DNA of 64,000 nucleotides from Candidatus Acidiferrales bacterium (GCA_049592615.1 JBAWGF010000080.1:1206-65205), one strand, 5' to 3'; counted from the stretch's first letter, positions 11,235 through 59,884 are shown. Made by a program: numbers and translations. Notes: generated by a model from the sequence alone, not told the origin.

Positions 11235-11263
11235 TTGAATCACGGGCAGCCGTTTGTTAGCCT
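11235..11263 (+). promoter_or_regulatory. Sigma-70-type promoter candidate for the CHASE2 cyclase gene
   Basis: TTGAAT-N17-TAGCCT with TGT immediately upstream of the -10 (extended -10-like). It lies 54 nt upstream of ATG 11317 and excludes the ORF-track start at 11254. Confidence 0.3.
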
Positions 11264-11316
11264 TCCGGGTACTTCGATTCTGGCTTCTCAGCGACACGCA
11301 GGAACCCACGCCCGTC

Positions 11317-33436: not shown

Positions 33437-33606
33437 CCAAACTCCAATACAGCGCGCCTAGCCGAACGCAGACCGCCTATCTCCGAGAGGGAACCTCAGC
33501 GTAGCCCCTGATCCATCTAGGGTCAAGCCGCTCAGCGACGCCTTATTCGAGTGAGTAACAAATTGAAAAGAACCGGAAAGTAGATGGGGCTCCAGGAGAC
33601 TGAGGG

Positions 33607-34362: not shown

Positions 34363-35132
34363 GACGACTCCTTCTCTACATCGTCTCGCTCGCTCTCATC
34401 GAATTCGCGGAGGGCGTCGAGCAGCAGGTCGGTTGAAGAACGTAGGACAGTTCGTTGCGCAGCCGTGGCGCCATACACAAATTTGTAAACGCCTTTTCCA
34501 ACGCCCTGGCAAGTCTTTACGATCTGGGTCACCGCTTCGTCTCCGAAGAGCGTGCCGCATTCTGCGTGCAGAATGTCACCGGCCTCGAAGAAAATGATTC
34601 CGTCGGTGTCGCCAGCGTTTATGTGCAGCGCGCCGGTTTGCCGTGCCTGCTCGAGCATCTGAATTACGCCGGGCAAATCCAGGTGCGAAAGGCTGCCGCT
34701 CAATTCCGTGTCCGCGCTCGCCAGCATCTGCGTCGGTTGAAAACCATCCTGGCGGCTCACAAGAAACCGCCGTACATGAGCTGCAATATCCTCGGGCGGC
34801 CGTCGCCGATCCACATAATCATCGCAGCCGGCGCGGTAGGCCTCGAGCAGCGCCTGATCGCCACCACCGCCCACAGCTATCAGGGGAATGTTCGACGTCT
34901 TAGGGTCGGCGCGCAGAATCGGCGCCATTTCGAGCGCGCCCATCTCGCGCAAGTTTGTGGCGCAAAGAATCGCCATCGGCGTATTCCATTCGAGCATCGT
35001 CAATGCGTAAGTTGCCTGCGTGCTCGGAACCACTTCGAATCCCTGGTGTGCCAGCGCATCGCCCAGACGCTTGGCAAAATAGACGTTGCTGTCGATCAAC
35101 AGAATCCGCGGTAGATTTCCTGGAGCGCTCAT
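34359..35132 (-). CDS. Degenerate receiver domain plus DUF4388 (PATAN-associated) domain protein
   Basis: REC fold with DS instead of DD, no Asp at the phospho-site (AILCATNLREMG), and R instead of K. The C-terminal LSGSLSHLDLPGVIQMLEQARQTGALHI...IIFFEAGDILHAE...GDEAV matches the DUF4388 pattern from memory. Confidence 0.7.
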   Translation of the reverse strand: MSAPGNLPRILLIDSNVYFAKRLGDALAHQGFEVVPSTQATYALTMLEWNTPMAILCATNLREMGALEMAPILRADPKTSNIPLIAVGGGGDQALLEAYRAGCDDYVDRRRPPEDIAAHVRRFLVSRQDGFQPTQMLASADTELSGSLSHLDLPGVIQMLEQARQTGALHINAGDTDGIIFFEAGDILHAECGTLFGDEAVTQIVKTCQGVGKGVYKFVYGATAAQRTVLRSSTDLLLDALREFDESERDDVEKESS

Positions 35133-35599
35133 ACTCGCGCCTCCGGACGGTCCACCACGACTGGTTCTACGGCCGGCGATGTCACCAGCGTTTCCAGATC
35201 CATCACGTCCACGCTCTCAAGACCCACGGAAACCGTCCCTGATACATATTTCGGGCGCTCACCTTCGGGTGGCTTCGCTTCTGCGGTCGCGAGTTCGCAC
35301 TCACCCGTCACTGGAATCGCCGCTGGTTCGCTCACTCTGCCAATTTCACGCCGCGCCACGAGGTAGAAGCGATGTGACGGCGAGCTTTTGCCCAGCAGTA
35401 CCGGGCCGACGTCATAAACGGGTACGATGCGGCCGCGGCGGACAATTACGCCGACGACGAGCGGCGAAGTTTGCGGAAACGTGTGCAGCCGCACCGGCGG
35501 CGCGAGTTCCGACACAATATCCGCGCGCAGGGCGAAGCGGCGGTCTCCGACCTGGAGCAGGACGTATGAATTCTGTCCGGCGTTTTCCGCCGCGTTCAT
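35129..35599 (-). CDS. cheW: CheW-like coupling protein
   Basis: YVLLQVGDRRFALRADIVSEL...VVGVIVRRGRIVPVYDVG. ATGA overlaps on both sides. Confidence 0.7.
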   Translation of the reverse strand: MNAAENAGQNSYVLLQVGDRRFALRADIVSELAPPVRLHTFPQTSPLVVGVIVRRGRIVPVYDVGPVLLGKSSPSHRFYLVARREIGRVSEPAAIPVTGECELATAEAKPPEGERPKYVSGTVSVGLESVDVMDLETLVTSPAVEPVVVDRPEARV

Positions 35600-36129
35600 A
35601 CCTCGACGGCTCCTTCCATGTCGCGCTGGGCCGCAGCCATATTCGCGATGCGATCAAGACGCCGGAATTCATCCGGCGTCAAGAATCCTGCCGGCCGGAT
35701 CAACGGAATCACGTGGTCGTCCAAATATGCGAGTCCGCGATACCATTGGCGCTCCTTGCCTGTAAATCCACGCGGGAGCGGGTACACAGTTGAAATCTCG
35801 GTCATGCGCTCAATCTTGTCCACCAGCACGGCCGTGCGCAATTGGCGCAGGACCAACACGAGATTCGGCCGCGTCACGGGCAGGTTGAAATGTGCGGCGG
35901 CGTTTACGATGTAATACGTCCGGTGCGCCCGCTCGATCGTATGCCGCACTTTCGGCAAATCCGATTGCTCCAGTTCCATTGCCGCGCCCGCCAGGCTGTC
36001 GGTACTGCGGATTTCCTGCACCGCGTCCGCCGCAATCGCAAAAGTCTGATTGGCCACCGCAAAAAGGATCACCGGCTCCGAACGGTGTGCGCGTCGCGTC
36101 TTCGCCGCGTCCTGCGTCGCGAATTTCAT
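35596..36129 (-). CDS. Divergent CheW-like protein
   Basis: ILFAVANQTFAIAADAVQEI...LVLVLR...AVLVDKIERM resembles a CheW fold but is divergent. It lies between cheB and cheW. Confidence 0.55.
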   Translation of the reverse strand: MKFATQDAAKTRRAHRSEPVILFAVANQTFAIAADAVQEIRSTDSLAGAAMELEQSDLPKVRHTIERAHRTYYIVNAAAHFNLPVTRPNLVLVLRQLRTAVLVDKIERMTEISTVYPLPRGFTGKERQWYRGLAYLDDHVIPLIRPAGFLTPDEFRRLDRIANMAAAQRDMEGAVEV

Positions 36130-41152: not shown

Positions 41153-42598
41153 TTAGCGATTCGCCCCCACGGGCGCAGTGGGCCGCGCCTCCTCAGCCGC
41201 CTCCGATTGACGCCCCGACTGCGATCTGAATTGTGCGAGCGCCTCGTTGAGCTGCTCCGAAAGCTTGACCATGTTTCCCACGGTCGAAGCCGTCTGCCGC
41301 GCGCCTTGCGTCGTCTGGCGAGTGATGCCGGAGATGATCTGCATCGCATTCGCCACGCCTTCCGTTCCGCGCACCTGCTGCTTCGAAGCGAGCGAAATCT
41401 CCTGTACGAGTTCGGCCGACTGCCGAACAACGCTTGAAATTGCTTCGAGCGCCTTTCCGGCTTGGTCGGCGAGCCCCGCTCCGACTTCCACTTCGCGAGT
41501 GCCTTCTTCCATCACGACCACCGCTTCGTTTGTCTCCGCCTGAATCGCTTTGATGAGCGCGGCAATGTCTTTCGTCGCGCTGCGGGAGTGCTCGGCCAGC
41601 TTGCGAACCTCGTCTGCGACGACCGCGAATCCGCGACCTGCCTCGCCCGCCCGCGCTGCTTCGATCGCCGCGTTGAGCGCGAGCAGGTTTGTCTGCTCGG
41701 TGATATCGTTAATCACGTTAATGATTTCTGAAATTTCAAGCGAGCGATCGCCGAGCGATTTGATTTTCTTCGCCGTCGCCTGCACCGAAGCGCGGATGCG
41801 CTGCATTCCTTCGAGCGTATCACGCACAGCGCGGTTTCCCTGTTCGGCGGCGTCGAGCGCGCGTCGTGCCGCTTCGGCGCTCGCTTCCGCGTTGTTCGAC
41901 ACCTGCTTCATCGAGACCGTCAGCTCTTCGACGGCCGACGAAGTGTTCGTGATTTCCTGGTCCTGCTGCGTCGCGCCGGCCGTCATATCGTCCGCGGCTT
42001 CGAGAATCTGGTTGGCGCTCGTGCTGACATCCACAGCCGCCTTGCGCACGCGCTCAAGAACTTTCGTGAAGTTGTCGAGCATGAAGTTCACGGAGTCCAC
42101 GACGTTGCCGAGCGCGTCGTTCGTCACCTTTCCGCGAATAGTCAGGTCGCCGCGCGCCACTTGATTGATCGTGTTGAGCAAATCGGTGATGCTCCGCTGC
42201 AATGAATCCTGAGCCTGCTGATTCGTGATGGCGTGAGCCACTTTTGCGGCGCTGCGGTTGAAATTCTCCGCGATGAATCCGAATTCGTCGTCGGAGTCGA
42301 CTTCTGCGCGCGCGCGAGAATCCCCGGCCACCAGCCGTTCTGAGAATTTCGCGAGCTCGCCCACGGGCCGGAGCACGCGCTTGCTCAGCACCATCACAAT
42401 CGAGATCGCCGCAATTACGGCAAGCGCGATGGCGCCGAGTAAGGCTCCGCCAGCACTCCCCGGAAGCGATGGCGCTTCGGTGAGCGAGAGTCCGCCCGAG
42501 TGTGCGCCCGCGTGGTAGGCGAGCCACAGCACGCCAAACAGCGCCACGCTGACGAATAGGACTAAGCCCCAAATTGCGGAACTCAAACGAGCTTTCAT
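41153..42598 (-). CDS. Methyl-accepting chemotaxis protein with a minimal periplasmic loop (2 TM, HAMP, signalling domain)
   Basis: Two TM helices are separated by ~25 residues. HAMP motif ([17 protein letters not shown]). Highly conserved hairpin [36 protein letters not shown]. Confidence 0.9.
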
Positions 42599-43587: not shown

Positions 43588-43603
43588 TGCAACTCCGCAG
43601 CCA
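43588..43603 (-). promoter_or_regulatory. Sigma-54 (-24/-12) promoter candidate upstream of cheY/che1
   Basis: The minus strand reads TGGCTGCGGAGTTGCA (TGGC-N7-TTGCA; GG-N10-GC spacing exact). It lies 36 nt upstream of GTG 43552, in the 132-nt gap after the preceding gene. Confidence 0.6.
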
Positions 43604-43684: not shown

Positions 43685-44383
43685 TCAGGTGCCTGTGACC
43701 AGGCGATGGGACTCCCTTTCCGTCTCAGCCTGAGACTCTTTCTCACCGGCCCGCACTTCGGCCGCAAGGGATGAGAATCGTTGCACGATCTCGTTGAGCC
43801 GGAGCGCCATTGTGTGAATCGTCCGGATTTGTTCGCGACAATCCGCCGAAACCTGTCCCGGTTCGAGGAGAAGCAGATCGGCATTGCCCAAAACTGATGT
43901 CAGCGCATTGTTCACGCTCGGACGCATCTCAAGCATGTAGCGGCCGAGAGTCGCGTGGCCCTGGCTTTCGTGCGCAAGTCGCTCCGCGCGCTGTGCGCGG
44001 CTCAAGGCTTCTACTCGGCGAAGCGCTTCGTTCGAAACCAGAATTAGCGTTCCGGTCCAGCCATCCTGTCGCGGCACAATCAGGAGATGAGGGTATTCCT
44101 CGCGCAGGGAGGAAATCTCTTTTTCTTCCCCGGCGACGTATACGGCAGTCGTGGCGGGCTCTGCATCAAGAGCAGAAAGAATCTCGGATGATTTCCCGTG
44201 TCTGACTGGCCCTACGATCACGAGTTGATACCCTTCCCCGCTGCCCGAGTGCCAAACGTCGCTGGTCGCGAGCGTAATTTCCGGGACGTGGCGCTCCGCC
44301 TGCCACCGTGCGGCGACGCTGCGCGCAAATTCCGTGTCGTCCGAGACGATCAGGACGCTGGCGAGGTTCAAGAGACCCCCCAC
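43685..44383 (-). CDS. Pseudo-receiver plus DHp-like (HisKA-like) domain protein lacking the phospho-acceptor His and any ATPase domain
   Basis: REC-like VLIVSDD..., but G at the phospho-site (LVIVGPV). The H-box-like EMRPSVNNALTSVLGNADLLL aligns with VAHEVNNPLAAIVGFTDLLL of the kinase at 48447-50435, with Pro in place of His. The start is uncertain (GTG 44383 or TTG 44371). The ORF-track start at 44677 would overlap the upstream gene. Confidence 0.6.
   Translation of the reverse strand: MGGLLNLASVLIVSDDTEFARSVAARWQAERHVPEITLATSDVWHSGSGEGYQLVIVGPVRHGKSSEILSALDAEPATTAVYVAGEEKEISSLREEYPHLLIVPRQDGWTGTLILVSNEALRRVEALSRAQRAERLAHESQGHATLGRYMLEMRPSVNNALTSVLGNADLLLLEPGQVSADCREQIRTIHTMALRLNEIVQRFSSLAAEVRAGEKESQAETERESHRLVTGT
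43722..43736. promoter_or_regulatory. Perfect 7-1-7 dyad GTCTCAG-C-CTGAGAC, candidate enhancer-binding-protein site
   Basis: It lies ~120 bp upstream of the -24 element at 43603, inside the 3' end of the preceding gene. It shares the 13-mer CGTCTCAGCCTGA with 46558-46570. Confidence 0.4.
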
Positions 44384-44396
44384 TCCTCTCTGCACT

Positions 44397-46007
44397 TCAG
44401 GGTTGAAGCATTTCCGCTTCTTCAATGAATGAAAGTAATCGTTTCGTGCTGATCCCCAGATTGACGGCAGCTTCTGTATTCTTCGCTTGCTTCGCCTGCT
44501 CGACTCGTCCCTGGAAATAAGAAACTTCACTTCGAGCCAGCAATAGAGCCGATGCAAGGGCGTTCGATTCGCCGGAGCGCTTGCGCTGGTCCATGGCAAC
44601 CGCCAGCAACGCACGCGCAACCACGGCGCGCCGCAAATCCTCCGCTTCCTGCCCGCCCTTATCGACGAACGCAGCAACTTCCCAGGATGAAAGCAAAACC
44701 TTCGTGTCCTGTAAAACGACCGTGGACATCGAGCGCCCGCGCGAAGGCGGAGCCGCGATCAATTGTTCCCATATCGCCTCGAGGCACTTCTCCAATTCGG
44801 CTTGCGGGGTCGGCTGCGCGGGGGCTTGCGCGACAGGTTTTGCCGGTCGATTCACTCCTTCAGGAGCAAAAGGCGCTTTCGGCTCATTCGGAATCACATC
44901 GGAGTGCGCCTCCTTGTTTTGCGGCGCCGGAGGCGGCGGAAGGACGTGCGCATCGCCTGGCGGAGGCACGCTCAGAATCGGAGTGACTGGTTCTTCCGAC
45001 TCCGATTCGAAAATGTCGAACTTGCGTTCCGGCACAAGTGCCGTTGCTGGTGCAACATCAGGCCGCTCGCGCCCCAGTGCCTCCTCCAGGTCCGCGCGCA
45101 ACGCCAGAAGCTGTTCAAACGCGTGGCTGACAGAGTTTGCGGTGTAGTCCTTGTGAAAGGGCTGCCGCCAATTCTCGCAGTAATACCGGAGCTGCGTCGT
45201 CGGCTCGGCAGCCGAAAATCCCGCGCGGCGGCAATCCACTGTTTTCACGCCGCTCACGTCCAGTGCATCCACCCCGTCTTTTAGCGCTTTCAAGTCCGCA
45301 TGCAGCATTCGAATGAACGCGCGTCGAAGGAGAAAATTGAACCGGGTGAAGGCCACGAGGGCGGCCGGATCGTAAAACATGCATCCGGCGGATTCTTTGA
45401 GCAGCCGGCCCTGTTCGAGGAGTCCGTGCTCCATCATGTCGCGCAGGCTGTGACAATTCTCGACCGCAAAGAGGATTTCCTCGAGCGGCTGGCACCATTC
45501 AAGCGGTGTTGCATCCGCTTCGGCAAGCACGGGCTGAAGGACGCGCGCAACGTCTGTGAGCTTGATCTCGGCGCGGTAGAGTTCCTCGGGTGCACACAGC
45601 GCGAAGTACTGCACGAGCAGAAGATCGATCTTGTCGCGGTCCACCGTCGATTTGTCCGGCTTCCTCAACTGCCGGTGAATAAACGCGCGGAGACCTTGCT
45701 CGCTGGCATTCAGGACCTCCGGAGGGAGCTGGCGAATTTGATAGGCGCGAAGTTTTTCATCGACTGCCTCGAGCCATTTCATATCGCTGTCGAATGCTTC
45801 CCGCGTGGGCCGCGCCGGAGGAAGTTCGCCGGCCGGATGAGGCAGCGGCGAGAAATTAAATTGAGTCGCGAGCGCTTCATAAAGGGGATACGCGAGCCGC
45901 GCCTCGTTCCATCGCGAGTCAAAATCAGCTGGCGCAGCTCCGCCGAAACCTAAATCCTGGGTTTCGGAAGGGAGTTTTATCGTGGTGACGGGAGATTTTG
46001 TGGTCAT
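44397..46007 (-). CDS. Hypothetical cytoplasmic protein, 536 aa, no recognisable domain
   Basis: A long ORF with coding-like composition. A helical N-terminal ~330 aa is followed by a Pro-rich linker (PPPGDAHVLPPPPAPQ...PAQPTPQ) and a ~130-aa C-terminal domain. Its start overlaps the upstream gene stop as ATGA. Confidence 0.7.
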   Translation of the reverse strand: MTTKSPVTTIKLPSETQDLGFGGAAPADFDSRWNEARLAYPLYEALATQFNFSPLPHPAGELPPARPTREAFDSDMKWLEAVDEKLRAYQIRQLPPEVLNASEQGLRAFIHRQLRKPDKSTVDRDKIDLLLVQYFALCAPEELYRAEIKLTDVARVLQPVLAEADATPLEWCQPLEEILFAVENCHSLRDMMEHGLLEQGRLLKESAGCMFYDPAALVAFTRFNFLLRRAFIRMLHADLKALKDGVDALDVSGVKTVDCRRAGFSAAEPTTQLRYYCENWRQPFHKDYTANSVSHAFEQLLALRADLEEALGRERPDVAPATALVPERKFDIFESESEEPVTPILSVPPPGDAHVLPPPPAPQNKEAHSDVIPNEPKAPFAPEGVNRPAKPVAQAPAQPTPQAELEKCLEAIWEQLIAAPPSRGRSMSTVVLQDTKVLLSSWEVAAFVDKGGQEAEDLRRAVVARALLAVAMDQRKRSGESNALASALLLARSEVSYFQGRVEQAKQAKNTEAAVNLGISTKRLLSFIEEAEMLQP

Positions 46008-46354
46008 GGTTTGATGATCCAGTTTCCAACTTCGCTCGCGAAGCGCGCCGCCACTGCCTTGCGGCCTTCGTGATAGCGCACGGCAACCACGGTAGCGCGT
46101 GCGTCGAGTGAACCGTCTGAATTCAGCAACCGCACGTGATCTTCGAATTCGAGCGGTAATGCAGACGCAAACAGCACTTCCCTCGCGGTGCCGAATTCAA
46201 TGAGCGTCTGTTCCTGCAATCGCCGCCGCCCTGCGCCAAGCGTCATGACGCGCACAGGAATGCGCACCGGCGAAGCGCTGGGAAAGAGCTGAGCCAGTTT
46301 TTCCACACATGATTGTCCTGCGGATGCTGCGACAACTCCGGCCTCACGTGTCAC
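46004..46354 (-). CDS. Small hypothetical protein, possibly a degenerate PilZ-like domain
   Basis: 116 aa with a GTG start. It contains RIPVR (RxxxR-like), but the second PilZ motif is not conserved (IEFGTAREV). Confidence 0.5.
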   Translation of the reverse strand: MTREAGVVAASAGQSCVEKLAQLFPSASPVRIPVRVMTLGAGRRRLQEQTLIEFGTAREVLFASALPLEFEDHVRLLNSDGSLDARATVVAVRYHEGRKAVAARFASEVGNWIIKP

Positions 46355-46461: not shown

Positions 46462-46477
46462 TGCACGAGCGCGGCCA
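46462..46477 (-). promoter_or_regulatory. Sigma-54 (-24/-12) promoter candidate upstream of the three-gene unknown operon
   Basis: The minus strand reads TGGCCGCGCTCGTGCA (GG-N10-GC spacing exact; the -12 is GTGCA). It lies 108 nt upstream of GTG 46354, in the 297-nt gap downstream of the EBP gene. Confidence 0.5.
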
Positions 46478-46558: not shown

Positions 46559-46573
46559 GTCTCAGCCTGACAC
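46559..46573. promoter_or_regulatory. Near-perfect dyad GTCTCAG-C-CTGACAC, candidate enhancer-binding-protein site
   Basis: It lies ~85 bp upstream of the -24 element at 46477. It shares the 13-mer CGTCTCAGCCTGA with 43721-43733. Confidence 0.4.
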
Positions 46574-46651
46574 ACTTGCGTCTCAAGTGCGCTTGTCAGA
46601 ATGTGTCGACAGAACGGGAATGGAAACCGGCGCGAAACGTCTCACGATCAT

Positions 46652-48052
46652 CTATTGAAGGGTTTCGACCGGCTGTTTGTGCGAGGAACGTAGTGGAATG
46701 TTATAACGTTTTAGTTTTCGATAAAGCGTCGCCCGGCTGATGCCAAGCATTCTCCCCGCGAGGGCCTTGTCTCCTCCGGCCTGGTCGAAGACGCGCAAGA
46801 TTGTCATTCTTTCGAGGTCCGCAAGCGCCGTGGTGGAAAGCGCTGCTGCATCGGGGCCGTCCGCGCCGCCGTCGAGGGCCACGTTGATATTGGGCGGAAG
46901 ATCTGCCACGTCAATCACGCGATGATCACCCAGAGCCACGGCGCGGGCGATGCAATTTTCCAGCTCGCGAACATTTCCCGGCCAATCGTATTGCAGGAAG
47001 CCTTTCATCGCCGCAGGAGTCACCTGAATATTCTTGTCGGGTGCGTAACGATCGAGAAAGCAGTGCACGAGCTGCGGAATATCGGAGCGGTGATCGCGCA
47101 GGCTGGGCAGGTGCACTGTGACGACGTTCAACCGGAAATAGAGATCCTTGCGAAACGTCCCGGCCCGATACGCCGCTTCCAGGTCCCGGTTTGTCGCCGC
47201 TATGATGCGCACGTCCACCGGAATTTTCTCGTTGCTGCCGACGGGCCTCACTTCTTTTTCTTGCAGCACACGCAACAACTTCGCCTGCATTTCCAGCGGC
47301 AACTCACCGATCTCGTCGAGAAAGATTGTTCCGCCATTCGCCGCTTGAAACAATCCGGGCTTTGATTTGAGCGCTCCTGTGAATGCGCCCTTCTCGTGGC
47401 CGAAAAGTTCGCTTTCCATTAGCGTGGGGACCAGCGTGCCGCAATCCACCGCGATAAAAGGCATTTGCGCCAGCGGCCCGCGGAAGTGAATTGCGCGCGC
47501 CACCAGTTCTTTTCCCGTCCCGCTCTCGCCCATGATGAGGACCGGCGTGCGTGTCTCCTTCAAGCGCGAAACCATCCGCATCATGTCCTGAATCTTGGCT
47601 GAAGTCCCCACGATGCCGTCGAGCTGCGATTCCGTATTCACGCGCTCGCGCAGAAATTGATTTTCTGTCACGAGCCGCACTTTCTCAGCCATTCGCTGCA
47701 AAAGCTGGCGCAGCTTTTCCACGCGGAATGGCTTCTCAATGTAGTCGTAGGCACCCTGACGCATCGCATCCACGGCTGATTCGATCGAGCCGTGCCCCGT
47801 CATGATGGCGACCTCGGTTCGCGGCAATTGGTCCTTAATTTTGCGCAGCAGGTCCGCGCCAGACAGGCTCGGCAGCTTCAAGTCGGTGACGACGATATCC
47901 GGTGGCGCCGTCTCGAGCGACTCGAGTGCTGCCTCCGCCGTCTCCGCTTCGAACGATTGAAAGCCCAGCCCCTGCCCGACCGTCATGCAAAGCCGCCGGA
48001 TGCTCTGCTCGTCGTCCACAATCAAAAAACGAAGCCTCTGTTCGTCTTTCAT
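46652..48052 (-). CDS. NtrC-family sigma-54-dependent transcriptional activator (REC, AAA+, Fis-type HTH)
   Basis: REC ([19 protein letters not shown]); Walker A GESGTGKE; GAFTGA present; Walker B FLDEIGE; C-terminal [17 protein letters not shown]. Confidence 0.9.
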
Positions 48053-48450
48053 GATCTCCCGATCGTTTTCTCAACCGCGACCATGAGCTGCTGGACGCGA
48101 AAGGGTTTTTCTACGCACGGCGTTCCGTCCTGCGCAAGGAGCGCGACAGTTTCGGCACTCGCCGTGTCTCCGGTAATGAAAATAATGCGCGATGTCAGTT
48201 CGGGCCGGTGCCGGCGGATCCAGTCATGTACGTCGGCGCCCGTAATTCCTCCCGGAGTCCGGAAATCTGAGATGACTCCGCGAAAATCTTCCGTCGCCAG
48301 CAATTGCAAACCCTCGGCGGCCGATGAAGAAGGAACCACCTCGTAGCCGCGCCGCTCGAGCGCCGTGCGCATGAAGGCGGCAACCGATGGTTCATCCTCT
48401 ATCACCAGGATGCGCGCCCGCGGTGCCGCTGCACCTTTCGAACCATTCAT
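48049..48450 (-). CDS. Single-domain response regulator
   Basis: ILVIEDE, VISDFRTPG, FITGD, EKPF. ATGA overlaps with both neighbours. Confidence 0.85.
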   Translation of the reverse strand: MNGSKGAAAPRARILVIEDEPSVAAFMRTALERRGYEVVPSSSAAEGLQLLATEDFRGVISDFRTPGGITGADVHDWIRRHRPELTSRIIFITGDTASAETVALLAQDGTPCVEKPFRVQQLMVAVEKTIGRS

Positions 48451-50435
48451 TGCGAGGCCTCTGCTGCCAGCAATTCGGCCGCTTTACTTGCTACAGGGAG
48501 CCGCACAAGGAAGGTGCAACCCACGCCGTCGGGATTGTTGCGCGCCACAATCTCGCCGCGATGCGCGCGCACAATGCCGTAACAAATGCTCAGACCCAGT
48601 CCGGTGCCTTTGCCGACTTCTTTCGTCGTGAAGAACGGATCGAAGATTCGGTCGGGTTGCGAAATGCCGGGCCCGTTATCACGAAACACAATCTCGAGAT
48701 GATCGTTGCGGTGCGAAGTCTCAATCTCGATTTTTCCGCGCCTTCGAGTCTCCTGCACGGCATCGTAGGAATTGTTCAGGATGTTGAGAAACACCTGCTG
48801 CAATTGGTGCGGATCGCCCACCATTTCCGGCAGTTCTTTTTCGTACCGCTCGGAAAGCTCAACGCCGTGATTCGAAAAATCGTACGCTCGCAATTTCAGC
48901 GTCTGACGCAGAATCGAATTCACCTGTACGGGCTCGCGCTGCGCCGGCATCTGCCGCGCAAAGCTGAGTAGGTTCTGGACGATCACGCGCGTGCGCTGCG
49001 CTTCCTGGAGAATCACTCGCAATTCTTCCTTTGCCGGCTCCGGTATCTCGGGATTCTCGAGCAGCAGGTCCGTGAAGCCGACGATCGCCGCAAGCGGATT
49101 GTTCACTTCGTGCGCAACGCCAGAGACAAGTTGGCCGAGCGCCGCCATTTTTTCCGTGTGCATCAGCTTGGCCTGCAAATCGGCAGCATCCGTGATATCC
49201 GTCATCACCACCACGATGCTGTTGATGTCTCCCTGCTCGTCGCGCATCGGACTCAGGCTGATGGAAAATTGACCCGCCGTCCCATTGCCACGGACGAGCG
49301 GAACCTCAAGGTTATCGAGCGCCGCTCCTTGCAGCGTTCGCTCGAGTGCCTCGGCCAGCAGAGGACGCCGCGCTTGCGGGATCATCTTGACCAGCGGCTG
49401 ACCCAACAGATCTTGTTCGCGATAGCCTGATTCGAAACATCGGCGATTCGCATAGCTGACCAGCCCTGCCGTATCGAGCACGAGGATCATGCTCTGTGTA
49501 TTGTTCAGAATATTTTTGTTGAAGTCGCGCTCGCGCCGGTAGCGCCGCTCGGCTTCGCGTCGGTCCGTGATGTCTTTAAGGACGTGAATCGTGCGCAGAT
49601 CATCCTGGTGGCCGGTGTGAATGCGCGACGCGGAGACCAGATACGTGCGCTCCGCGGCTTGGTGGGTGAATTCCTCTTGTGCCGCCTTCGAATCTCGGCA
49701 GAACGGGCATCGCCCCGGCTGCATCGTTGACCCAAGGAGTTCCAGCTTTCCCATGTCCCGGCCGATCGCTTCCGTGGGACGCACCCCCAGTGCACTTGCG
49801 AGCGCACGATTCAAACGAAGCACGCGGTTCTTGTTGTCGTGCACGACAATGAAATCGGAAATGGCATCGAAGTCCTCGACCCACTGCTTTCGCGACTGCT
49901 CGATTCGCGAGAACAGCCGTACATTCTCGAGCGCAACCGATGCGTGTCCCGCCAACGCTTCGAGCAGTTGCCGCTCCGCCGCAGTAAGTTCACGCGCCAA
50001 ATCCACGAGGCACAGCACGCCGAGCAATTCCCCACCGCTTCCCATCAGGCGCGTGAGGACCAATTCTCCCCAGCTCAGCGCTTCCGCCAACTCGCGCCCT
50101 AACAACCGCTCCGCTGGGGTGCGCCGCAGCTCGACAAAAGACGCGGGGGCCTGTCCCGCCAATGCCTGTCCTAGCCGCTGCTGAACGCGCGCGTCCCAGC
50201 GATGAGCCGGACCACTGAGCGCCGCAATCTCCCATTCGGAGCCGCACTCGAGCGTTAAGACCGCTGCGCGAGCGCCGAGCATTTCCGCGGCACGCGCGGT
50301 CAACCGCCGAGCAAATTCTGTAGTGCCAAGCGACGGGTTCAGTTCCAGCGTCGTGGCGGAAAATTGGGCCAGCAGACTCTCAAATGATCCATCGAGACGA
50401 GTAGGCACTTCGCGAATTCGCTTTAATGCGCGCAT
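48447..50435 (-). CDS. Cytoplasmic sensor histidine kinase (GAF, two PAS, HisKA, HATPase)
   Basis: No TM helix is evident. GAF-like N-terminus, two PAS-like segments, H-box AHEVNNPL, N-box NILNNSYDA, G-boxes DNGPGI and GTGLGLSI. Confidence 0.88.
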   Translation of the reverse strand: MRALKRIREVPTRLDGSFESLLAQFSATTLELNPSLGTTEFARRLTARAAEMLGARAAVLTLECGSEWEIAALSGPAHRWDARVQQRLGQALAGQAPASFVELRRTPAERLLGRELAEALSWGELVLTRLMGSGGELLGVLCLVDLARELTAAERQLLEALAGHASVALENVRLFSRIEQSRKQWVEDFDAISDFIVVHDNKNRVLRLNRALASALGVRPTEAIGRDMGKLELLGSTMQPGRCPFCRDSKAAQEEFTHQAAERTYLVSASRIHTGHQDDLRTIHVLKDITDRREAERRYRRERDFNKNILNNTQSMILVLDTAGLVSYANRRCFESGYREQDLLGQPLVKMIPQARRPLLAEALERTLQGAALDNLEVPLVRGNGTAGQFSISLSPMRDEQGDINSIVVVMTDITDAADLQAKLMHTEKMAALGQLVSGVAHEVNNPLAAIVGFTDLLLENPEIPEPAKEELRVILQEAQRTRVIVQNLLSFARQMPAQREPVQVNSILRQTLKLRAYDFSNHGVELSERYEKELPEMVGDPHQLQQVFLNILNNSYDAVQETRRRGKIEIETSHRNDHLEIVFRDNGPGISQPDRIFDPFFTTKEVGKGTGLGLSICYGIVRAHRGEIVARNNPDGVGCTFLVRLPVASKAAELLAAEASQ

Positions 50436-50716
50436 GGAGGATAGAGGACCTGTGCTCGTTTCGCCTTTACTAGGTTGACGTTACGGTCTCATCTCATTTT
50501 GAGTCAAGGCATGTACCTAGGCGTGTTGCCGTAACGGGCAATCAGGCCCGCGTCGCAACCTGAGACTCAAAACTCACGCTATGGGGACGTTTGAGACGCT
50601 CATCTGCCGACATCCCTTTGATCCGGAGAAGTCGCGCGTCTAGTAACCACTTCTGAATCAATTGTTTAGCATGCTCCACAGCTATTTCTTGACGACCCCA
50701 AAGTTCACCTCCTCCA

Positions 50717-50732
50717 TGGCATTGCCATTGCA
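50717..50732 (+). promoter_or_regulatory. Sigma-54 (-24/-12) promoter candidate upstream of the TonB-C gene and che2
   Basis: TGGCATTGCCATTGCA (TGGCAT-N5-TTGCA, close to consensus TGGCAC-N5-TTGCA). It lies 44 nt upstream of ATG 50776, which has a GGGGAGGG RBS. Confidence 0.65.
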
Positions 50733-50775
50733 TTTTCTGACGTGGGAGCTTTCCCTCAACTGGGGAGGGATACAC

Positions 50776-51129
50776 ATGAAGCAGAGATTCGGGGTTGCGG
50801 GACTTGGACTTTTGCTGCTGTTACTGGGATCGGCGGTCGTACCGCCGAAGGCTGTCGCGCAAGATGCATCCAGCGAGTCGCCCAAGCGCAAAGTAAAGAC
50901 CCGCGCTGTGCCTGAGTATCCTCCGCTTGCCAAGCAGTACAACGTCACCGGAAAAGTGAAAATCGAGGCAAAGATTTCATCCGACGGGCACGTAGTCGAG
51001 ACGAAGGTGATCGGTGGCAGCCCGTTGCTGGTGGGTGCCGCAATCGAAGCACTAAAAAAGTGGCGTTTTGAACCTTCGGCAAAAGAATCGAGCGAAGTTT
51101 TCGAGTTTAGTTTTTCGGGCCTGAACTAG
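50776..51129 (+). CDS. Periplasmic TonB C-terminal-domain protein (no TM/Pro-rich TonB body)
   Basis: Signal peptide MKQRFGVAGLGLLLLLLGSAVVPPKAVAQ, then PEYPPLAKQYNVTGKVKIEAKISSDGHVVETKVIGGSPLLVGAAIEALKKWRFEP. Confidence 0.75.
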   Translation: MKQRFGVAGLGLLLLLLGSAVVPPKAVAQDASSESPKRKVKTRAVPEYPPLAKQYNVTGKVKIEAKISSDGHVVETKVIGGSPLLVGAAIEALKKWRFEPSAKESSEVFEFSFSGLN

Positions 51130-51186
51130 CATCCGTCAGCCTGCCATTGGGGGCATCGCGACGCGCGTGGAGTGGAGGCGTTTCAC

Positions 51187-53190
51187 ATGACGATCAGTAA
51201 GAAATTGTATTTGGGATTCGGCGCCATTCTGGCGATCATGCTCGGCCTGTTCATCATCAACATCTTCACGGTCATCCGCGAATATAGCGCGCGCTCCACC
51301 GTGGCCGTCACGCTCGCCGATGTGCAGACCATCGAGACGGTCCGCTTCCAGATGATGGAAAATCGCCAGTACCTCGGGAATTATCTCCTGAGCGGCGATC
51401 TGCGCGATGAAGACAGGGCCAATCATGGAATCAACGACCTTCACGAGCTTTTGCGCGAAGCAGGAAATAAAGCGCACGATGTCTATCTCCGCTCGGCTCT
51501 CACTCAAGTGGAGGAAAATGAACACAACTGGGCGGACAATTTTGCGAAACCGATGATCGCCAAACGTCACCAAGTGGACGCGGGCGATGCTACAGTTTCC
51601 GACCTCCAGATCTTCTATCTGCAACACGATCCTGGTTCGTGGATCAACAAGTCCTCGGGCGTGCTCGACGAGGCCAATCGCGCGGTTCGCAGGGCGCTCG
51701 AAGAATCGAACTCGTCAGCCTCTTCCGCCACGGCTGTCAGCACGGGCATCACCACGGCCGGAACATTGCTTGCCATTCTCCTCGGAGGATGCATCGCCTT
51801 CTACACGGCCAAGTCGATTCGACAACCGCTATACCACTTGATTGATGTCGCGCATCGGATTGGCGAGACGGGTGATCTGGATCAGACGATCGACATCCAC
51901 CGCGCCGATGAAGTAGGCATGCTCGCGAATAATTTCAACAAGATGATCGTCCATTTGAAGGACATGGCCGCTGTCTCTGCATCCATTGCCGAGGGTCAAT
52001 TGTCGGTTGCGGTGCAGCCACGATCGCAGCAGGACACCATGGCCAAGGCATTCGCGCGAATGACGCAGGGACTTCGCGATCTCGTCCGCCAGGTTCGCGA
52101 CAGTGCCGGACAGGTCGCGAGCGGCGCGGGACAGATGGCGAGCGCCTCCGATGAATCGGCCAAGGTCAACGTGCAGGCGGCCTCGGCAATCGATGAAGTC
52201 ACGAGCACGATGCACGAGATGAGCATCAATGTGCAAAACGTCGTGAAGAATACGCAGGTTCAGGGATCGAGCGTCGCCGAGACCTCCGCATCGATCGACC
52301 AGATGGTCACTTCGATCGACCGCGTCGCCGACACGGCCAAGCTACTCGTTGACATATCGCACCGCTCTCGCGAAGAAGTTCAAACCGGCATGGTCACCAT
52401 GGACAAGGCCACCCAGGGTCTCAATCGTACGAGTCACGCAATCCAGTCGTCGGCCGAAATCATCGATGTGCTCGGGCGTCGCGCGGACGATATCGGCAAG
52501 ATCATCGAAGTGATCGACGATCTCGCCGAACAGACGAACCTGCTCGCGTTGAACGCCGCGATCGAAGCGGCTCGCGCCGGGGAGCACGGTCTTGGGTTCG
52601 CCGTGGTCGCGGAAGAAGTGCGGAAGCTCGCGGAAAAATCCACGCAGTCCACGAAGGAAATTTCTGAACTGATTGAAGGCATTCAAAAAGAGGCGCGCGA
52701 AGCCGTCGAGAACATGGAAAAGAGTACGACCATGGTGCAGGAAGGTTTGTTGCTGAACAAAGACCTCGGCCTAGCGCTTGAGAAAATCTCCGAAGTCGTC
52801 GGTGAGGTTTACAAATTCTCTCAGGAAATCGGCGCAGCCACTATGGAGCAGTCGAGCGGCTCGGCGCAGATTGCCAAGGCCACCAATCGCCTCACCGAAA
52901 TCACGCAGGAGATCACCTCTTCGGTCGAAGAGCAGGCATCGGGAGCGCAGGCGGTGGTCCGTGCGATGGAGAAAATGCGCGAGTTGGTCCAGCAGTCCAC
53001 CTCGAGTTCCACGGAACTCGCAGCTGCCGCCGAACAAATGTCGAAGCTGTCTCGCGCGCTTCTCGAAACCATGGATCGCTTTGTGATCGAGGAAAACTAC
53101 AACGACGGCCGGCGATATCCCGCGCGGCGCCCGGAGCCGGGCGGCGAACGAAATCCTCAGCACGAGTACGCAGAAGCGATTCGCTCTTGA
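51187..53190 (+). CDS. Methyl-accepting chemotaxis protein with a four-helix-bundle-type periplasmic sensor, HAMP and signalling domain
   Basis: TM1 [19 protein letters not shown], a ~170-aa helical ectodomain, TM2, HAMP, and conserved [36 protein letters not shown]. Confidence 0.9.
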
Positions 53191-53207
53191 GGGCTCACTC
53201 GCAAATC

Positions 53208-53699
53208 ATGCAAAAGGAACTTCAGATCGTCGGATTCCGGATCGGGCGCGAAACGTTCGGGCTGCCCATCTCCCTGGTCCGGGAAATCGTGCGCGTCCCG
53301 GAAATAACCTCCGTGCCGAACGCACCCGACTACATTGAAGGAGTGATCAACCTCCGCGGCCGGATTATTCCCGTCGTGGATCTGAGGAAACGATTCCATG
53401 AAGAGGTGGGCGAACCGAATAAGAAAAACCGAATCGTTGTGGTGGAGCTGGAGAGCCGCGCGATTGGTTTGATTGTGAATTCGGCTTCGGAAGTATTGAA
53501 AATTCCACCCTCCGACATCCAGGCGCCGCACGAAGTTTTTCCGGAAGGCGAGATGGACTACATAACCGGCGTGGGAAAGCTGAAAGGGCGGCTTGTGATC
53601 CTGCTCGACCTGAATCGCATTTTGCAGCGCGGGGAGCTGCATCGTCTGGATGAAGTCGCCGATTCCGCAGCCACTGTTCCGACCGGCAGCATGAGATGA
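53208..53699 (+). CDS. cheW: CheW coupling protein
   Basis: LQIVGFRIGRETFGLPISLVREIV...GVINLRGRIIPVVDL. The start may instead be TTG 53187, which overlaps the MCP stop. Confidence 0.85.
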   Translation: MQKELQIVGFRIGRETFGLPISLVREIVRVPEITSVPNAPDYIEGVINLRGRIIPVVDLRKRFHEEVGEPNKKNRIVVVELESRAIGLIVNSASEVLKIPPSDIQAPHEVFPEGEMDYITGVGKLKGRLVILLDLNRILQRGELHRLDEVADSAATVPTGSMR

Positions 53700-53741
53700 A
53701 CTTTCTGAGCCGCACTCGGGGGAAATAACGACGAGGGACGA

Positions 53742-54647
53742 ATGTCCACACTCAGTACTGAGGTCCCGCTCACCGATGCCGAATTAAAGCTCCTGCAGAC
53801 GCTCGTCTACCAGGAGTGCGGCATGTATTTCGACGAGCGCCGCACTCATTTCCTGCGCGATCGCCTCCAACGCCGCCTGAAAGCATGCCAGATGGAATCC
53901 TTCTACAGCTACTACCGGCTGCTGACCAGCCGGGAGGGCAAGCAGGAGCTCGTGGCGCTGCTCGAAAATCTTACGGTCAATGAGACCAGCTTCTTCCGCA
54001 TTCGCCCTCAACTCGATCTCTTCCAGAAAGTCGTTCTTGAAGAAATCCTGAAGCGAAAGCAGGAGCGCCGGGATTGGTCCATTCGCATCTGGAGCGCGGG
54101 CTGCTCAACGGGCCAGGAGCCATACTCGCTCGCAATCCTCGTTTGCGACGCCCTTGCTTACTACTACCTGCGCAACCCGCTTCCCTTCGAAATGCCCACT
54201 CCGAAGCCGCTGATTCCCCCGCCGTGGAAGGTGGAAATCATCGCTTCCGACATCAACTACTCGGCCTTGCTCACCGCGCAACAAGGAATCTACAGCGAAT
54301 CGCAGATGGAAACGGTGGAATACACCTGCCGGCTGCGCTATTTCGACAAAGTCGGCGATAAGTACGCCGTAAAACCAGCCTTGAAGAATCTGGTCCAGTT
54401 CGACTTCCATAATTTGAAAACGGAATATCTACCGCAGCGCAACGATGCGATTTTCTGCCGCAACGTCATGATCTACTTTGACGAAGCAGAGCAGAAGCGC
54501 CTGATCGAAAAATTCCATCGGTGTCTCAATCCCGATGGCTATCTCTTCGTCGGCCACGCGGAAAGCCTTTTCGGTCTGACAACGAAGTACCACATGATCC
54601 ATCAAAACAATGGGACCGTTTATCAGCGGCTCGAGGTGACGCAGTGA
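53742..54647 (+). CDS. cheR: Chemotaxis protein methyltransferase CheR
   Basis: ETSFFRI, RIWSAGCSTGQEPYSLA, CRNVMIYF. Confidence 0.9.
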   Translation: MSTLSTEVPLTDAELKLLQTLVYQECGMYFDERRTHFLRDRLQRRLKACQMESFYSYYRLLTSREGKQELVALLENLTVNETSFFRIRPQLDLFQKVVLEEILKRKQERRDWSIRIWSAGCSTGQEPYSLAILVCDALAYYYLRNPLPFEMPTPKPLIPPPWKVEIIASDINYSALLTAQQGIYSESQMETVEYTCRLRYFDKVGDKYAVKPALKNLVQFDFHNLKTEYLPQRNDAIFCRNVMIYFDEAEQKRLIEKFHRCLNPDGYLFVGHAESLFGLTTKYHMIHQNNGTVYQRLEVTQ

Positions 54648-56734
54648 ATTATTTTTCCGACGACCGCGCTTCCGAGCTGCGCGAGCTTTTCTTTGAAAGC
54701 GCTGCAGAAATTCTGCAGGGCATGAACGAGGCGGGGCTCGCCCTCGAAGCAAGTCCTACTGATCAGGAAAGTCTGCGCCGCGTGCGCCGCGCTGTCCACA
54801 CGCTGAAGGGTGATTCGGCGGCTTGCGGGTTCCGCGAGCTCAGCGAACTCTCGCACGAACTCGAAGACGTCCTGACGCCGGAGCTGGCCAAAGAAAATGC
54901 AGGATTGATCGCAGAGGTAGTCCTTACCGCCGCCGACACGTTTCACGAAATGCTCGCGGCTTATCGCGATCGTCTCAGACCTCCCGACGGCAAGGCCCTC
55001 CGCGAGCACATCCAGCGCCTATTGCGAAAACCGGTCGCGAAGCCGCAAAAGCCTGCGGCGGAAACGCACTTCGAGTGGACCGAATACCAGCGGCTTATGA
55101 TTGCAGAGGCGTTCCGCAAGGGCGAGACGGTGTACCACGTCGCGATGCACCTCGATCCCGAGGCGTTCCTGCCCGCTGCGTCCTATGAATTGGCCCGCAA
55201 GGCCCTCCAGAGCGCGGGAAAAATTCTTGCTCTGCATCCGGAAACCGCGCCGGTCGCCCACGTCGGCCTGATGGAAGCAGCGATCTCGAGTGCAAAGTCC
55301 GCGGATTGGATCAAGAAACGGTGCCGTGTGCCTTCCGTCGTGGTGAAGATTTCCGTTGAAAAATTGCCCGTCCCGAAATCCGTGCCGCGCGACCTGCTGG
55401 AAATCCTCCTCGAATCCGAAGCGGCTGCAGTTTCAGCGGGGATTACGCCCGCGCGAACCGAATCACCGGAAAGCCACGATGCGGAATCGGGAGCGCCCGG
55501 CGCGGCACCGGGAGGTGCTCATGCTGCCGCTGAAAACACCTTGCGCGTGGATGCCGGACGCATCGACGTCGTGATGAATCTGGTCGGCGAACTCATCATC
55601 GGAAAATCCATGCTGCATCGGACTCTCGACGAATTCGCACGGCGGCACTCGAAGGATCCACTGCAAGGAAAATTTGCCGACGCGCTCGCCTTCCAGTCGC
55701 GCATTCTCGGGGAATTGCAAAAGTCTGTCATGAAAATCCGAATGGTGCCGGTCGAGCAGCTCTTCCGCCGCTTCCCACGGGTCGTGCGAGACGTCGCCAA
55801 GCAGCGAAATCGCGACATTACCCTCGAACTCGCCGGACAGACGACCGACCTCGACAAAAGCATCCTCGACGCGCTCGCCGAACCGCTTGCTCACCTCGTG
55901 CGCAATGCAGCCGACCACGGAATCGAATCAGCTGCCGATCGAGCAGCCGCTGGAAAACCGGAACGCGGCACAATTCGAATGAACGCCTATCACGAAGGGA
56001 ACCAGGTCGCCATCGAGGTCTCGGACGATGGGCGCGGACTCGATCGCGAAAAAATTGTGCGCCGCGCAATTGAGTCCGGCATCATCCAGGCCGAAGAAGT
56101 CGCCCGGCTGAATGAAACAGAATCGCTTCAGCTTGTTTTCAAACTGGGACTCAGTACGGCAGACGAAGTGACCGAGATTTCTGGCCGTGGAGTGGGACTC
56201 GACGTCGTTCGGTCAGCTCTCGAAAACCTGAAGGGCTCCATCGAACTCGAAAGCAGGCCCGGCAAGGGCACCACGTTCCGGCTCATGGTCCCGCTAACCC
56301 TTGCGAGCATTCAAGCTCTCCTGTTCCGCGTTGCTGCACGCCTCTACGCCGTCCCGCTCGCTTCCGTTCAGGAAATCACGCGCATTCACGAAAACGAGAT
56401 TCACCGCGTGGATGATCGGGAAGTCTTTCAACTTCGCGAACAGGTTCTCACGCTGGTCCGGCTCGATCGCCTCGGGCCTAAAGAAGCACGCGGGCGCGCT
56501 GACCGTATTTTCGTGATCGTGATCGGTGCGGGAAGCCGCCGATTCGGACTTGCAGTGGACACTCTGATGGGCGAAGAGGAACTTGTGATCAAAGCTCTCG
56601 AAGATCGCCTGATCACTTCTCCCCTCGTGAGCGGCGCCTCCATCCTCGGCGATGGAACCGTGGTTCTGATCTTGAATGTGCCGGCTGTGATCGCTCATCT
56701 CTCGAGAATCCCGGCAGTGGGGGCCACGGCATGA
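54644..56734 (+). CDS. cheA: CheA histidine kinase (single Hpt, no receiver)
   Basis: Hpt AVHTLKGDSAACGF, HLVRNAADHGIE, DDGRGLD, GRGVGLDVV, C-terminal CheW-like domain. GTG 54644 overlaps the cheR stop as GTGA. Confidence 0.9.
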   Translation: MNYFSDDRASELRELFFESAAEILQGMNEAGLALEASPTDQESLRRVRRAVHTLKGDSAACGFRELSELSHELEDVLTPELAKENAGLIAEVVLTAADTFHEMLAAYRDRLRPPDGKALREHIQRLLRKPVAKPQKPAAETHFEWTEYQRLMIAEAFRKGETVYHVAMHLDPEAFLPAASYELARKALQSAGKILALHPETAPVAHVGLMEAAISSAKSADWIKKRCRVPSVVVKISVEKLPVPKSVPRDLLEILLESEAAAVSAGITPARTESPESHDAESGAPGAAPGGAHAAAENTLRVDAGRIDVVMNLVGELIIGKSMLHRTLDEFARRHSKDPLQGKFADALAFQSRILGELQKSVMKIRMVPVEQLFRRFPRVVRDVAKQRNRDITLELAGQTTDLDKSILDALAEPLAHLVRNAADHGIESAADRAAAGKPERGTIRMNAYHEGNQVAIEVSDDGRGLDREKIVRRAIESGIIQAEEVARLNETESLQLVFKLGLSTADEVTEISGRGVGLDVVRSALENLKGSIELESRPGKGTTFRLMVPLTLASIQALLFRVAARLYAVPLASVQEITRIHENEIHRVDDREVFQLREQVLTLVRLDRLGPKEARGRADRIFVIVIGAGSRRFGLAVDTLMGEEELVIKALEDRLITSPLVSGASILGDGTVVLILNVPAVIAHLSRIPAVGATA

Positions 56735-57858: not shown

Positions 57859-57860
57859 TT

Positions 57861-58807: not shown

Positions 58808-58837
58808 AGAATCGAGCGAGATTCGGGCGCAGCAGAA

Positions 58838-59707: not shown

Positions 59708-59884
59708 GCGGAACCCTCCCTCAGAAGACAGGACTTCCCTTCCGTGAAGATAACATACCGGAGTCCAGGTGGGGCTTCGGCAACACCGCCTGTTCGTCAA
59801 ACCCTAACTTCCCACTCACTGCGATACTATGGACGCGCAGGCATCCTGCGTCCTAGCCCTCTAAGAAAATACAGGAATTGGCGA

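Follow-up and report, generated by a model that had tools for sequence, protein, structure and literature searches.

Background

In Myxococcus xanthus the kinase CrdS and the NtrC-type activator CrdA are encoded next to the Che3 chemosensory cluster (PMC3147164). A similar arrangement occurs in the DNA considered here, a 64,000-nucleotide stretch from Candidatus Acidiferrales bacterium (GCA_049592615.1 JBAWGF010000080.1:1206-65205), which we call "the window" and in which positions are counted from the first letter. Our subject is a compact operon of three genes, P1, P2 and P3 (43685-46354, all on the minus strand), that lies between the gene for a sigma-54 activator and a chemosensory cluster, che1; a second cluster, che2, lies beyond the activator and its kinase. 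As in the CrdS/CrdA/Che3 system, a kinase and an NtrC-like activator stand beside che clusters; unlike Che3, both clusters in the window have their own CheY. P3 shares with HisKA bifunctional kinases such as CrdS the phosphatase Asn, and its DHp-like domain shows homology with the DHp of the adjacent kinase, which is of the H-E-V-N-N-P type. It differs from CrdS in lacking the ATPase domain, the sensor domain, the acidic residue that follows the phospho-acceptor His (His+1) and, in the clade of the window, the His itself, and also in carrying an N-terminal receiver-like domain.

The phosphotransferases Spo0B and ChpT are dimeric DHp-like helical hairpins without a functional ATP-binding domain. 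Compared by description only, P3 resembles them in being DHp-like, in having no functional ATP-binding domain and in being encoded near a single-domain receiver; the P3 of the window differs in that it has no His and in that a plausible N-terminal pseudo-receiver takes the place of their C-terminal CA-like domain.

P1 can be compared with the non-canonical PilZ-fold adaptors (PilZ of Pseudomonas and Xanthomonas, PlpA of Myxococcus). Like these it is small and stands alone, with a predicted barrel of six strands for which PilZ domains are the closest structural matches, and its gene is associated with a chemosensory cluster of the pilus type. It differs in having no Pfam PilZ match, in the family-wide degeneracy of both binding motifs, and in being translationally coupled to a novel protein, P2; no equivalent of FimX, PilB or MglB was found as a partner. 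The fold of P1 led us to liken it to the PlpA-type non-binding PilZ adaptors (PMC8316039), although by that family's sequence criteria it falls outside. P2 recalls the hubs of pilus-chemosensory systems (FimL and FimV in Pseudomonas, and RomR-type proteins with a Pro-rich linker) in combining folded domains with a long, Pro-rich disordered linker and in being encoded beside a Pil-Chp/Tax-like cluster. It differs from them in having no similarity to PDB entries in sequence or fold, and no TPR, Hpt or receiver domain.

A literature search found no paper describing a P1-P2-P3 module. The trio had been noticed by a model working from the sequence alone (the "original prediction"), which proposed that it is an undescribed accessory module; Pfam and NCBIfam assign none of the three proteins to a family, in agreement with that proposal.

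Results and discussion

A regulatory signature shared with both chemosensory operons

The genes of the trio and the regulatory elements discussed in this section are as follows.

46354..46004, minus strand: P1, GTG start, 116 amino acids
46007..44397, minus strand: P2, 536 amino acids
44371..43685, minus strand: P3, TTG start, 228 amino acids, as in the source record
46559..46585, minus strand: candidate upstream activating sequence (UAS) of the trio promoter, TGAGAC-N6-GTGTCA-GGC-TGAGAC, invariant in 8 aligned intergenic regions
46477..46462, minus strand: -24/-12 sigma-54-type element of the trio, TGGCCGCGCTCGTGCA, with GG/GC spacing, 107 nucleotides upstream of P1
43722..43736, minus strand: candidate che1 UAS, GTCTCAGGCTGAGAC, a perfect palindrome within the 3'-terminal part of P3 and 133 nucleotides upstream of the che1 element
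43603..43588, minus strand: -24/-12 sigma-54-type element of che1, TGGCTGCGGAGTTGCA, 35 nucleotides before cheY
50552-50566: copy of the palindrome at che2, with one mismatch, in the interval that separates the kinase gene from the divergent che2
50717-50732, plus strand: -24/-12 element close to the consensus, TGGCATTGCCATTGCA, directed into che2

The trio is a predicted sigma-54-dependent operon, conserved in soil Acidobacteria, whose regulatory signature is common to both flanking chemosensory operons. The original prediction had given the operon a sigma-54-type promoter of its own, and a pattern search for -24/-12 elements with an N8 spacer agrees: TGGCCGCGCTCGTGCA has the canonical GG/GC spacing, and 62 of 77 related loci have a motif of this type ahead of P1/P2, at similar distances. 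An alignment of the intergenic region between the activator and P1 from 8 diverged loci contains, upstream of the -24/-12 element, an invariant TGAGAC-N6-GT(G/T)TCA-N3-TGAGAC. The core palindrome of this block, GTnTCA-N3-TGAGAC, is matched seven times in the window against 0.7 matches expected by chance. Since a palindrome is counted on both strands, the seven matches represent four distinct sites, three of which fall in promoter regions: those of the trio (46559-46573), che1 (43722-43736) and che2 (50552-50566).

The same pairing of elements recurs in other genomes. At the trio promoter the palindrome is found in 82 of 92 loci, about 97 nucleotides upstream of the -24/-12 element. At the che1 promoter 76 of 78 loci carry the -24/-12 motif and 77 of 79 the palindrome, the two being 130-133 nucleotides apart, and at the che2 promoter both occur together, about 166 nucleotides apart, in 9 of 11 scorable loci. 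The elements thus resemble NtrC/PilR-type sigma-54 regulons, in which -24/-12 elements are preceded by a dyad-symmetric site about 100-130 nucleotides upstream; here, GTnTCA-N3-TGAGAC was matched to no described activator site, and one copy lies within the coding sequence of P3. Because the shared palindrome stands some 100-130 nucleotides upstream of the -24/-12 elements, the motifs suggest that the trio is most likely part of the regulon governed by the neighbouring GAF-PAS kinase, single-domain receiver and NtrC-type activator.

The palindrome GTCTCAGGCTGAGAC is likely to be the activator site of the che1 sigma-54 promoter. It falls on the codons of a conserved stretch at the P3 C-terminus, (K)ESQAET, so part of the conservation of this tail may reflect constraint at the DNA level. 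A promoter and terminator scan had flagged the same palindrome as "terminator-like". At che2, the -24/-12 element sits within a TTG-started open reading frame (50662-51129), whose true start is therefore probably further downstream.

Organization of the operon

The original prediction of a three-gene operon stands. P1 and P2 overlap as ATGA (AAACCATGACC), and the stop codon of P2 is separated from the start of P3 by 25 nucleotides (TTG 44371) or 13 nucleotides if the alternative GTG at 44383, which gives a protein of 232 residues, is used. With its most plausible start at GTG 43552, cheY begins 132 nucleotides downstream of the P3 stop, the distance given originally. No terminator was found between P3 and cheY; the sole stem-loop flagged there is the palindrome at 43722-43736. 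At an expect value (E) of 1e-3 or better, at least 3396 homologues were found for P1, at least 1590 for P2 and at least 6453 for P3, and with thousands of homologues each the three open reading frames are real genes rather than chance ones. Essentially all of these homologues are labelled hypothetical and come from metagenome-assembled genomes of Acidobacteriota (Acidiferrales, Acidoferrum, Terriglobia). Most P1 homologues have 116 residues, matching the start at GTG 46354. The source record calls P1 at 100 residues, from an internal GTG; the evidence favours the 116-residue start, which has a GGGGA ribosome-binding site. No membrane-spanning segments were found in P1, P2 or P3, all of which are soluble, and none has an ATP-binding kinase domain.

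P3: a receiver-like domain fused to a kinase-less DHp-like domain

44006..44371, minus strand: receiver-like N-domain, residues 1-122, with Gly54-Pro55 at the phospho-Asp position (hhalign)
43757..43981, minus strand: DHp-like domain, residues 131-205, a paralogue of the DHp of the adjacent kinase (BLASTP, profile)
codon 43921..43919, minus strand: H-box position, Pro151, in M-R-P151-S-V-N-N of the window's clade

The DHp-like domain of P3 is related to that of the kinase encoded at 48447-50435. The two share 31% identity over 87 residues in BLASTP (E 6e-7), and a P3 profile finds the kinase at E 8.9e-8, which bears out the original description of P3 as a DHp protein. P3 scores 19 bits against Pfam HisKA, below the cut-off of 26.9, with sub-threshold matches in 43 of its 44 close homologues; NCBIfam gave no match, and the P3 profile found none among PDB sequences. 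By Pfam there is no HATPase_c domain after the DHp, and the protein ends about 25 residues past it.

The H-box of P3 in the window reads M-R-P-S-V-N-N, against A-H-E-V-N-N-P in the adjacent kinase. At the phospho-acceptor position the P3 of the window has Pro, as do all 44 of the close homologues that were aligned; 95 of 101 more distant orthologues, from related loci, have His there. The residue at His+1 is Ser, Asn or Thr and is acidic in 1 of 101 orthologues, and His+4 (Asn155) is Asn in 100 of 101. In CrdS and three other HisKA kinases, the acidic residue at +1 is needed only for kinase activity and the Thr or Asn at +4 only for phosphatase activity; in CrdS, an NtrB-type kinase that acts on an NtrC-type activator, most of the phosphatase activity survives the mutation H371A (Willett and Kirby, PMC3510030). 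With the +1 acidic residue gone and the +4 Asn kept, P3 has the look of a DHp that cannot support kinase activity but carries a motif of the phosphatase type; in the window's clade it lacks the His as well. The replacement of His by Pro across a large clade, with the rest of the H-box invariant, fits a P3 function that would not depend on His. The claim that none of the three proteins has enzymatic residues was consequently too strong: the phosphatase-type Asn is nearly invariant, and most orthologues outside the clade retain the His. Compared over loci L001-L145, codon 151 has switched naturally from His to Pro throughout one clade, in an H-box whose other positions do not vary.

The N-domain, which begins VLIVSDD, is plausibly a pseudo-receiver. 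In hhalign comparisons with a profile of 386 receiver sequences it gave a P value of 5e-4 and a probability of only 31%, with 80 columns in register and the phospho-Asp aligned to Gly; an 8-sequence receiver profile gave a probability of 2%, and there was no match to Pfam Response_reg (PF00072). The phospho-Asp position holds Gly in 96 of 101 orthologues and Asp in 2. The original description of this domain as a pseudo-receiver is plausible, the domain being receiver-like and without a phospho-Asp, though the match to receivers is weak.

P1: a predicted PilZ-fold barrel

46004..46354, minus strand: P1, six-stranded beta-barrel with PilZ fold and degenerate cyclic di-GMP (c-di-GMP) motifs (AlphaFold and Foldseek)

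Structural modelling predicts that P1 is a PilZ-fold barrel without c-di-GMP motifs, as its tentative first description as PilZ-like had anticipated. The AlphaFold (AF2) model has six strands at a mean predicted local distance difference test (pLDDT) of 82, and PilZ domains (Alg44, MotI, BcsA, PA0012, YcgR and MrkH) make up most of its top ~20 Foldseek matches in PDB (E 1.6e-3, probability 1.0, template-modelling (TM) score about 0.5). Sequence searches returned no such relationship: P1 has no Pfam match at E <= 1, PilZ (PF07238) included, and likewise none in NCBIfam, and a profile search of PDB sequences yielded noise only and no PilZ. When the motif positions were mapped onto the PilZ fold by strand position rather than by structural alignment, the candidate RxxxR was found to keep R31, with residue 35 being Gln in 49 of 111 sequences and Arg in 42; across the 111 orthologues T50-x-(V/I)52-E-F-G55 takes the place of (D/N)xSxxG.

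P2: a helical protein without known relatives

45066..45932, minus strand: N-domain, residues 26-314, all-alpha, with motifs DRDKxDxLLVQYF and RFNFLLRR; pLDDT above 90
44808..45065, minus strand: Pro/Ala-rich disordered linker, residues 315-400; pLDDT below 50
44397..44807, minus strand: C-domain, residues 401-536, a helical bundle with motifs SSWEVxAF and LRRAVxAR; pLDDT 80-95, alignments

P2 is a new two-domain helical protein family outside every described family. The layout first proposed, a helical N-domain, a Pro-rich linker and a C-domain, is reproduced by the model, in which residues 401-532 of the C-domain have a pLDDT of 80-95. The N-domain is the conserved core and the sole part kept in N-domain-only versions of about 290-370 residues; it carries a cluster of conserved basic residues (R92, R124, K126, R201, K204 and R228) that might bind a phosphorylated or nucleotide ligand. 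The linker (26% Pro, 14% Ala) varies in length and sequence among relatives and is at times coiled-coil-like. The C-domain is nearly invariant in close relatives and absent from the N-domain-only lineages.

The statement that P2 has no recognisable motif also holds, as no match was found in Pfam, NCBIfam, PDB or BFVD. The Pfam and NCBIfam searches included 46 diverse and 10 unusually long family members; the P2 profile had 0 matches to PDB sequences at E <= 10; and the best Foldseek values for the whole model, E 0.23 in PDB and 0.014 in BFVD with TM below 0.2, do not constitute a meaningful match. An exhaustive profile search recovered 601 clusters (50% identity level), of which 282 had an E of 1e-30 or lower, and relatives were confirmed in at least 590 species-representative genomes. 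No fused domains were found in the long homologues of 600-785 residues.

Several assignments of P2 were considered and set aside. A Fis-type HTH at the C-terminus (NTEAAVNLGISTKRLL) was rejected since "LGIS" becomes "LAAT" in distant members and there is no match to HTH_8 or to a DNA-binding fold. The C-domain is not an Hpt domain: none of the 46 and 10 members matches Pfam Hpt, and no Hpt or CheA-P1 structure is among the Foldseek matches. One source labels one P2 homologue "HPt"; this is unsupported, there being no Pfam match and, on reading through the translation of the C-domain, no His. A weak match of the P2 profile to a REC protein in the window (33607-34362) reflects Pro/Ala low complexity only.

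Gene neighbourhood

46652..50435, minus strand: upstream regulatory block, syntenic with P2 (Pfam)
50435..48447, minus strand: GAF-PAS-HisKA-HATPase kinase (Pfam)
48450..48049, minus strand: single-domain receiver (Pfam)
48052..46652, minus strand: REC-AAA+-HTH sigma-54 activator (Pfam)
50662-59800, plus strand: che2, a complete second chemosensory cluster (TonB_C-like small protein, MCP, CheW, CheR, CheA, CheB, CheY, CheX)
58838-59800: PilZ-domain protein convergent with che2

The order in the window is che2 on the plus strand and then, on the minus strand, kinase, single receiver, activator, P1-P2-P3 and che1. The che1 cluster encodes CheY, CheW, an MCP, CheR, CheA (two Hpt domains, and a receiver at the C-terminus), CheB and two CheW-like proteins; the region past CheB (32531-36129) comprises these two CheW-like proteins, a REC-PATAN (DUF4388) protein, a REC-Pro/Ala-coiled-coil protein and a di-PilZ protein. 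The first PilZ-like domain of the di-PilZ protein has canonical RxxxR and DxSxxG motifs. On inspection, the che1 MCP (41153-42598) has two N-terminal hydrophobic segments only about 25 residues apart before HAMP, which would leave essentially no periplasmic sensing domain. We also considered whether che2, like Che3, has no CheY and acts through the activator; in that form the idea was rejected, because che2 encodes a CheY of its own and a CheX.

Conservation and linkage

Linkage was scored in 145 loci, made up of 80 genome loci and 65 metagenome loci of more distant P2 relatives, and the counts use loci with enough flanking sequence. The whole arrangement is syntenic in the 80 genome loci. P2 is accompanied by P1 in 110 of 129 loci, P3 in 97 of 111, the activator in 91 of 104 and the kinase in 90 of 96; che1 (CheW/MCP) lies downstream in 78 of 94 and che2 upstream in 74 of 80. 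Among P2 relatives of 33-40% identity, P1 (17/22) and P3 (13/16) are retained, with che1 downstream in only 1 of 9. P1 and P3 therefore track P2 more faithfully than che1 does. The association between full-length P2 and che1 nevertheless extends to about 30% P2 identity (L114, L125, L142). In 83 of 84 scorable loci the single receiver and P3 either both occur or are both missing.

The trio does not always accompany a che cluster. In L091 and L089 it lies beside the housekeeping genes lnt and prfB, unlinked from the activator, and there it keeps both the palindrome and the -24/-12 element. P2 alone stands among housekeeping genes, without che or two-component neighbours, in L081, L130, L131 and L134, and in many lineages an N-domain-only P2 of about 340-370 residues is found with P1, P3 and a lone CheR. 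In one sub-lineage, L005-L009 (P2 at about 10001-11680), a full-length P2 lies between the activator and che1, and P1, P3 and the single receiver are all missing. The tie to the adjacent chemosensory array, put forward in the original prediction, is thus looser than the tie to the kinase/receiver/activator block and its regulatory DNA.

The stand-alone P2 homologue of L081 (9353-10753, minus strand) lies beside a murJ-like gene and housekeeping genes; convergent with it is the gene for a 466-residue protein whose N-terminus has canonical-looking PilZ motifs (RKRPR ... NVSSAG). The syntenic cluster of the Acidoferrum records also occurs, at 44-47% P2 identity, in several metagenome-assembled genomes annotated by third parties (L011, L020, L035, L042, L055, L067, L070, L075 and L079) under the labels Dormiibacterota, Verrucomicrobiia, Saccharimonadales, Eremiobacteraceae, Eisenbacteria, Dongiaceae and Udaeobacter; these labels look unreliable.

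A feedback model and its alternatives

The best explanation, to which we give a probability of about 0.4, is that the trio belongs to the activator's regulon and that P3 is a feedback phosphatase or decoy; P3 probably tunes the same signalling circuit. In this model the adjacent activator would bind the palindrome GTnTCA-N3-TGAGAC. P3 would dimerise through its DHp and dock a phosphorylated receiver domain, the likeliest targets being the single-domain receiver or the receiver of the activator, and a CheY-like protein being less likely. The docked receiver would be dephosphorylated or sequestered. As the expression of P3 would itself be driven by the activator, the result would be a loop that exerts negative feedback, or sets a threshold, on the expression of both che systems. 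P1, which is translationally coupled to P2, probably binds the P2 N-domain, and the pair may regulate or position P3. More broadly, we regard the trio as auxiliary regulators of two-component and chemosensory circuits, a known kind, that include one new protein family, P2.

A number of observations weigh against this model. Its mechanism is drawn from motif logic and gene neighbourhood, and it assigns no role to P2, the largest and most conserved component, which is also found without P1 and P3 (L005-L009 and the stand-alone loci). The joint loss of P1, P3 and the single receiver in L005-L009 is probably one evolutionary event, and L003, which keeps P1 and P3 without the single receiver, is a counter-example to their co-loss. 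The receiver assignment of the P3 N-domain is weak (31% by hhalign, no Pfam match). Within the DHp, His+5 is Ala where kinases have Pro, and the CrdS mutant P376A had reduced phosphatase activity (PMC3510030). The DHp specificity positions +7 and +12 differ from those of the adjacent kinase and point to no receiver partner, and the His present in 95 of 101 orthologues also fits phosphotransfer.

Phosphotransfer is the basis of one alternative, in which P3 is a Spo0B/ChpT-like protein that passes phosphate from the kinase through the single receiver and the P3 His to the receiver of the activator, the His-to-Pro clade being degenerate or rewired. It would account for that His, for the lack both of an ATPase domain and of the acidic residue needed for autophosphorylation, for the conserved single-domain receiver encoded between kinase and activator, and for the joint presence or absence of this receiver and P3 in all but one scorable locus. 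An essential step, however, should not tolerate Pro at the His position in a large clade (all 44 close homologues) whose P3 is otherwise strongly constrained, and the clade thus speaks against a relay in which P3 is indispensable. In addition, position +4 almost always holds the phosphatase-type Asn, P3 occurs in L003 where the single receiver is missing, and no relay is needed when the activator has a receiver of its own beside a complete kinase; we consider this alternative quite improbable. P2 may also define a new Acidobacteria-specific signalling domain, which would form with P1 and P3 a three-protein auxiliary complex setting the phosphorylation of the NtrC-type activator and hence the expression of che1 and che2. 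This is a rather unlikely reading.

According to the original prediction the three proteins are non-enzymatic scaffolds or adaptors for the adjacent chemosensory array. In such a reading they would assemble, localise or feed input to the che1 (Pil-Chp/Tax-like) array, and P2 would be a FimL/FimV-like hub. Much of the architecture is compatible with this: the trio is immediately upstream of che1 and shares its regulatory signature, CheW/MCP genes follow in 78 of 94 loci and with full-length P2 down to about 30% identity (L114, L125, L142), two folded domains joined by a Pro-rich linker are typical of hub proteins, P1 resembles PilZ-type adaptors, and the che1 MCP, on inspection, seems to be nearly devoid of a periplasmic domain. 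The looser linkage to che1 argues against a dedicated che1 scaffold, since among loci with 33-40% P2 identity only 1 of 9 has che1 downstream, while P1 and P3 remain, the trio stands beside housekeeping genes in L091 and L089, and P2 occurs without che genes in L081, L130, L131 and L134. None of the three proteins is similar to array components or to Hpt or CheW folds. Given the linkage and the phosphatase-type Asn of P3, a scaffold role is a possible but not the best-supported reading, and on the doubtful side. A role downstream of che, as a type IV pilus motility or polarity effector co-expressed with che without regulating it, P1 being PilZ/PlpA-like and P2 a polar landmark, would suit the PilZ fold of P1 without binding motifs, the Pro-rich linker of P2 and the REC-PATAN, REC-coiled-coil and di-PilZ proteins of che1, which are typical of pilus and polarity control. 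Against it, no pilB/T/M-Q or mglA/B was identified in the annotated parts of the window, the DHp of P3 points to two-component chemistry, and none of the three proteins is similar to known polarity factors; such an effector seems decidedly unlikely.

Significance

Acidobacteria are among the most abundant soil bacteria, yet hardly any work has been done on their signalling and motility. The module described here is found in hundreds of species, where one easily recognised DNA motif ties one sigma-54 activator to two chemosensory systems, and it defines a predicted regulon (UAS and promoters) that can be searched for genome-wide. In GTCTCAGGCTGAGAC it offers a candidate activator-binding palindrome embedded in coding sequence, where it would constrain the C-terminal tail of P3. 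P3 itself is a candidate stand-alone DHp phosphatase or decoy, whose natural His and Pro variants could show which activities need the His, and P2 adds a widespread, confidently folded family without a known relative. If P1, P2 and P3 do form a complex that sets the phosphorylation of the activator, they would represent a new class of accessory regulators for two-component systems.

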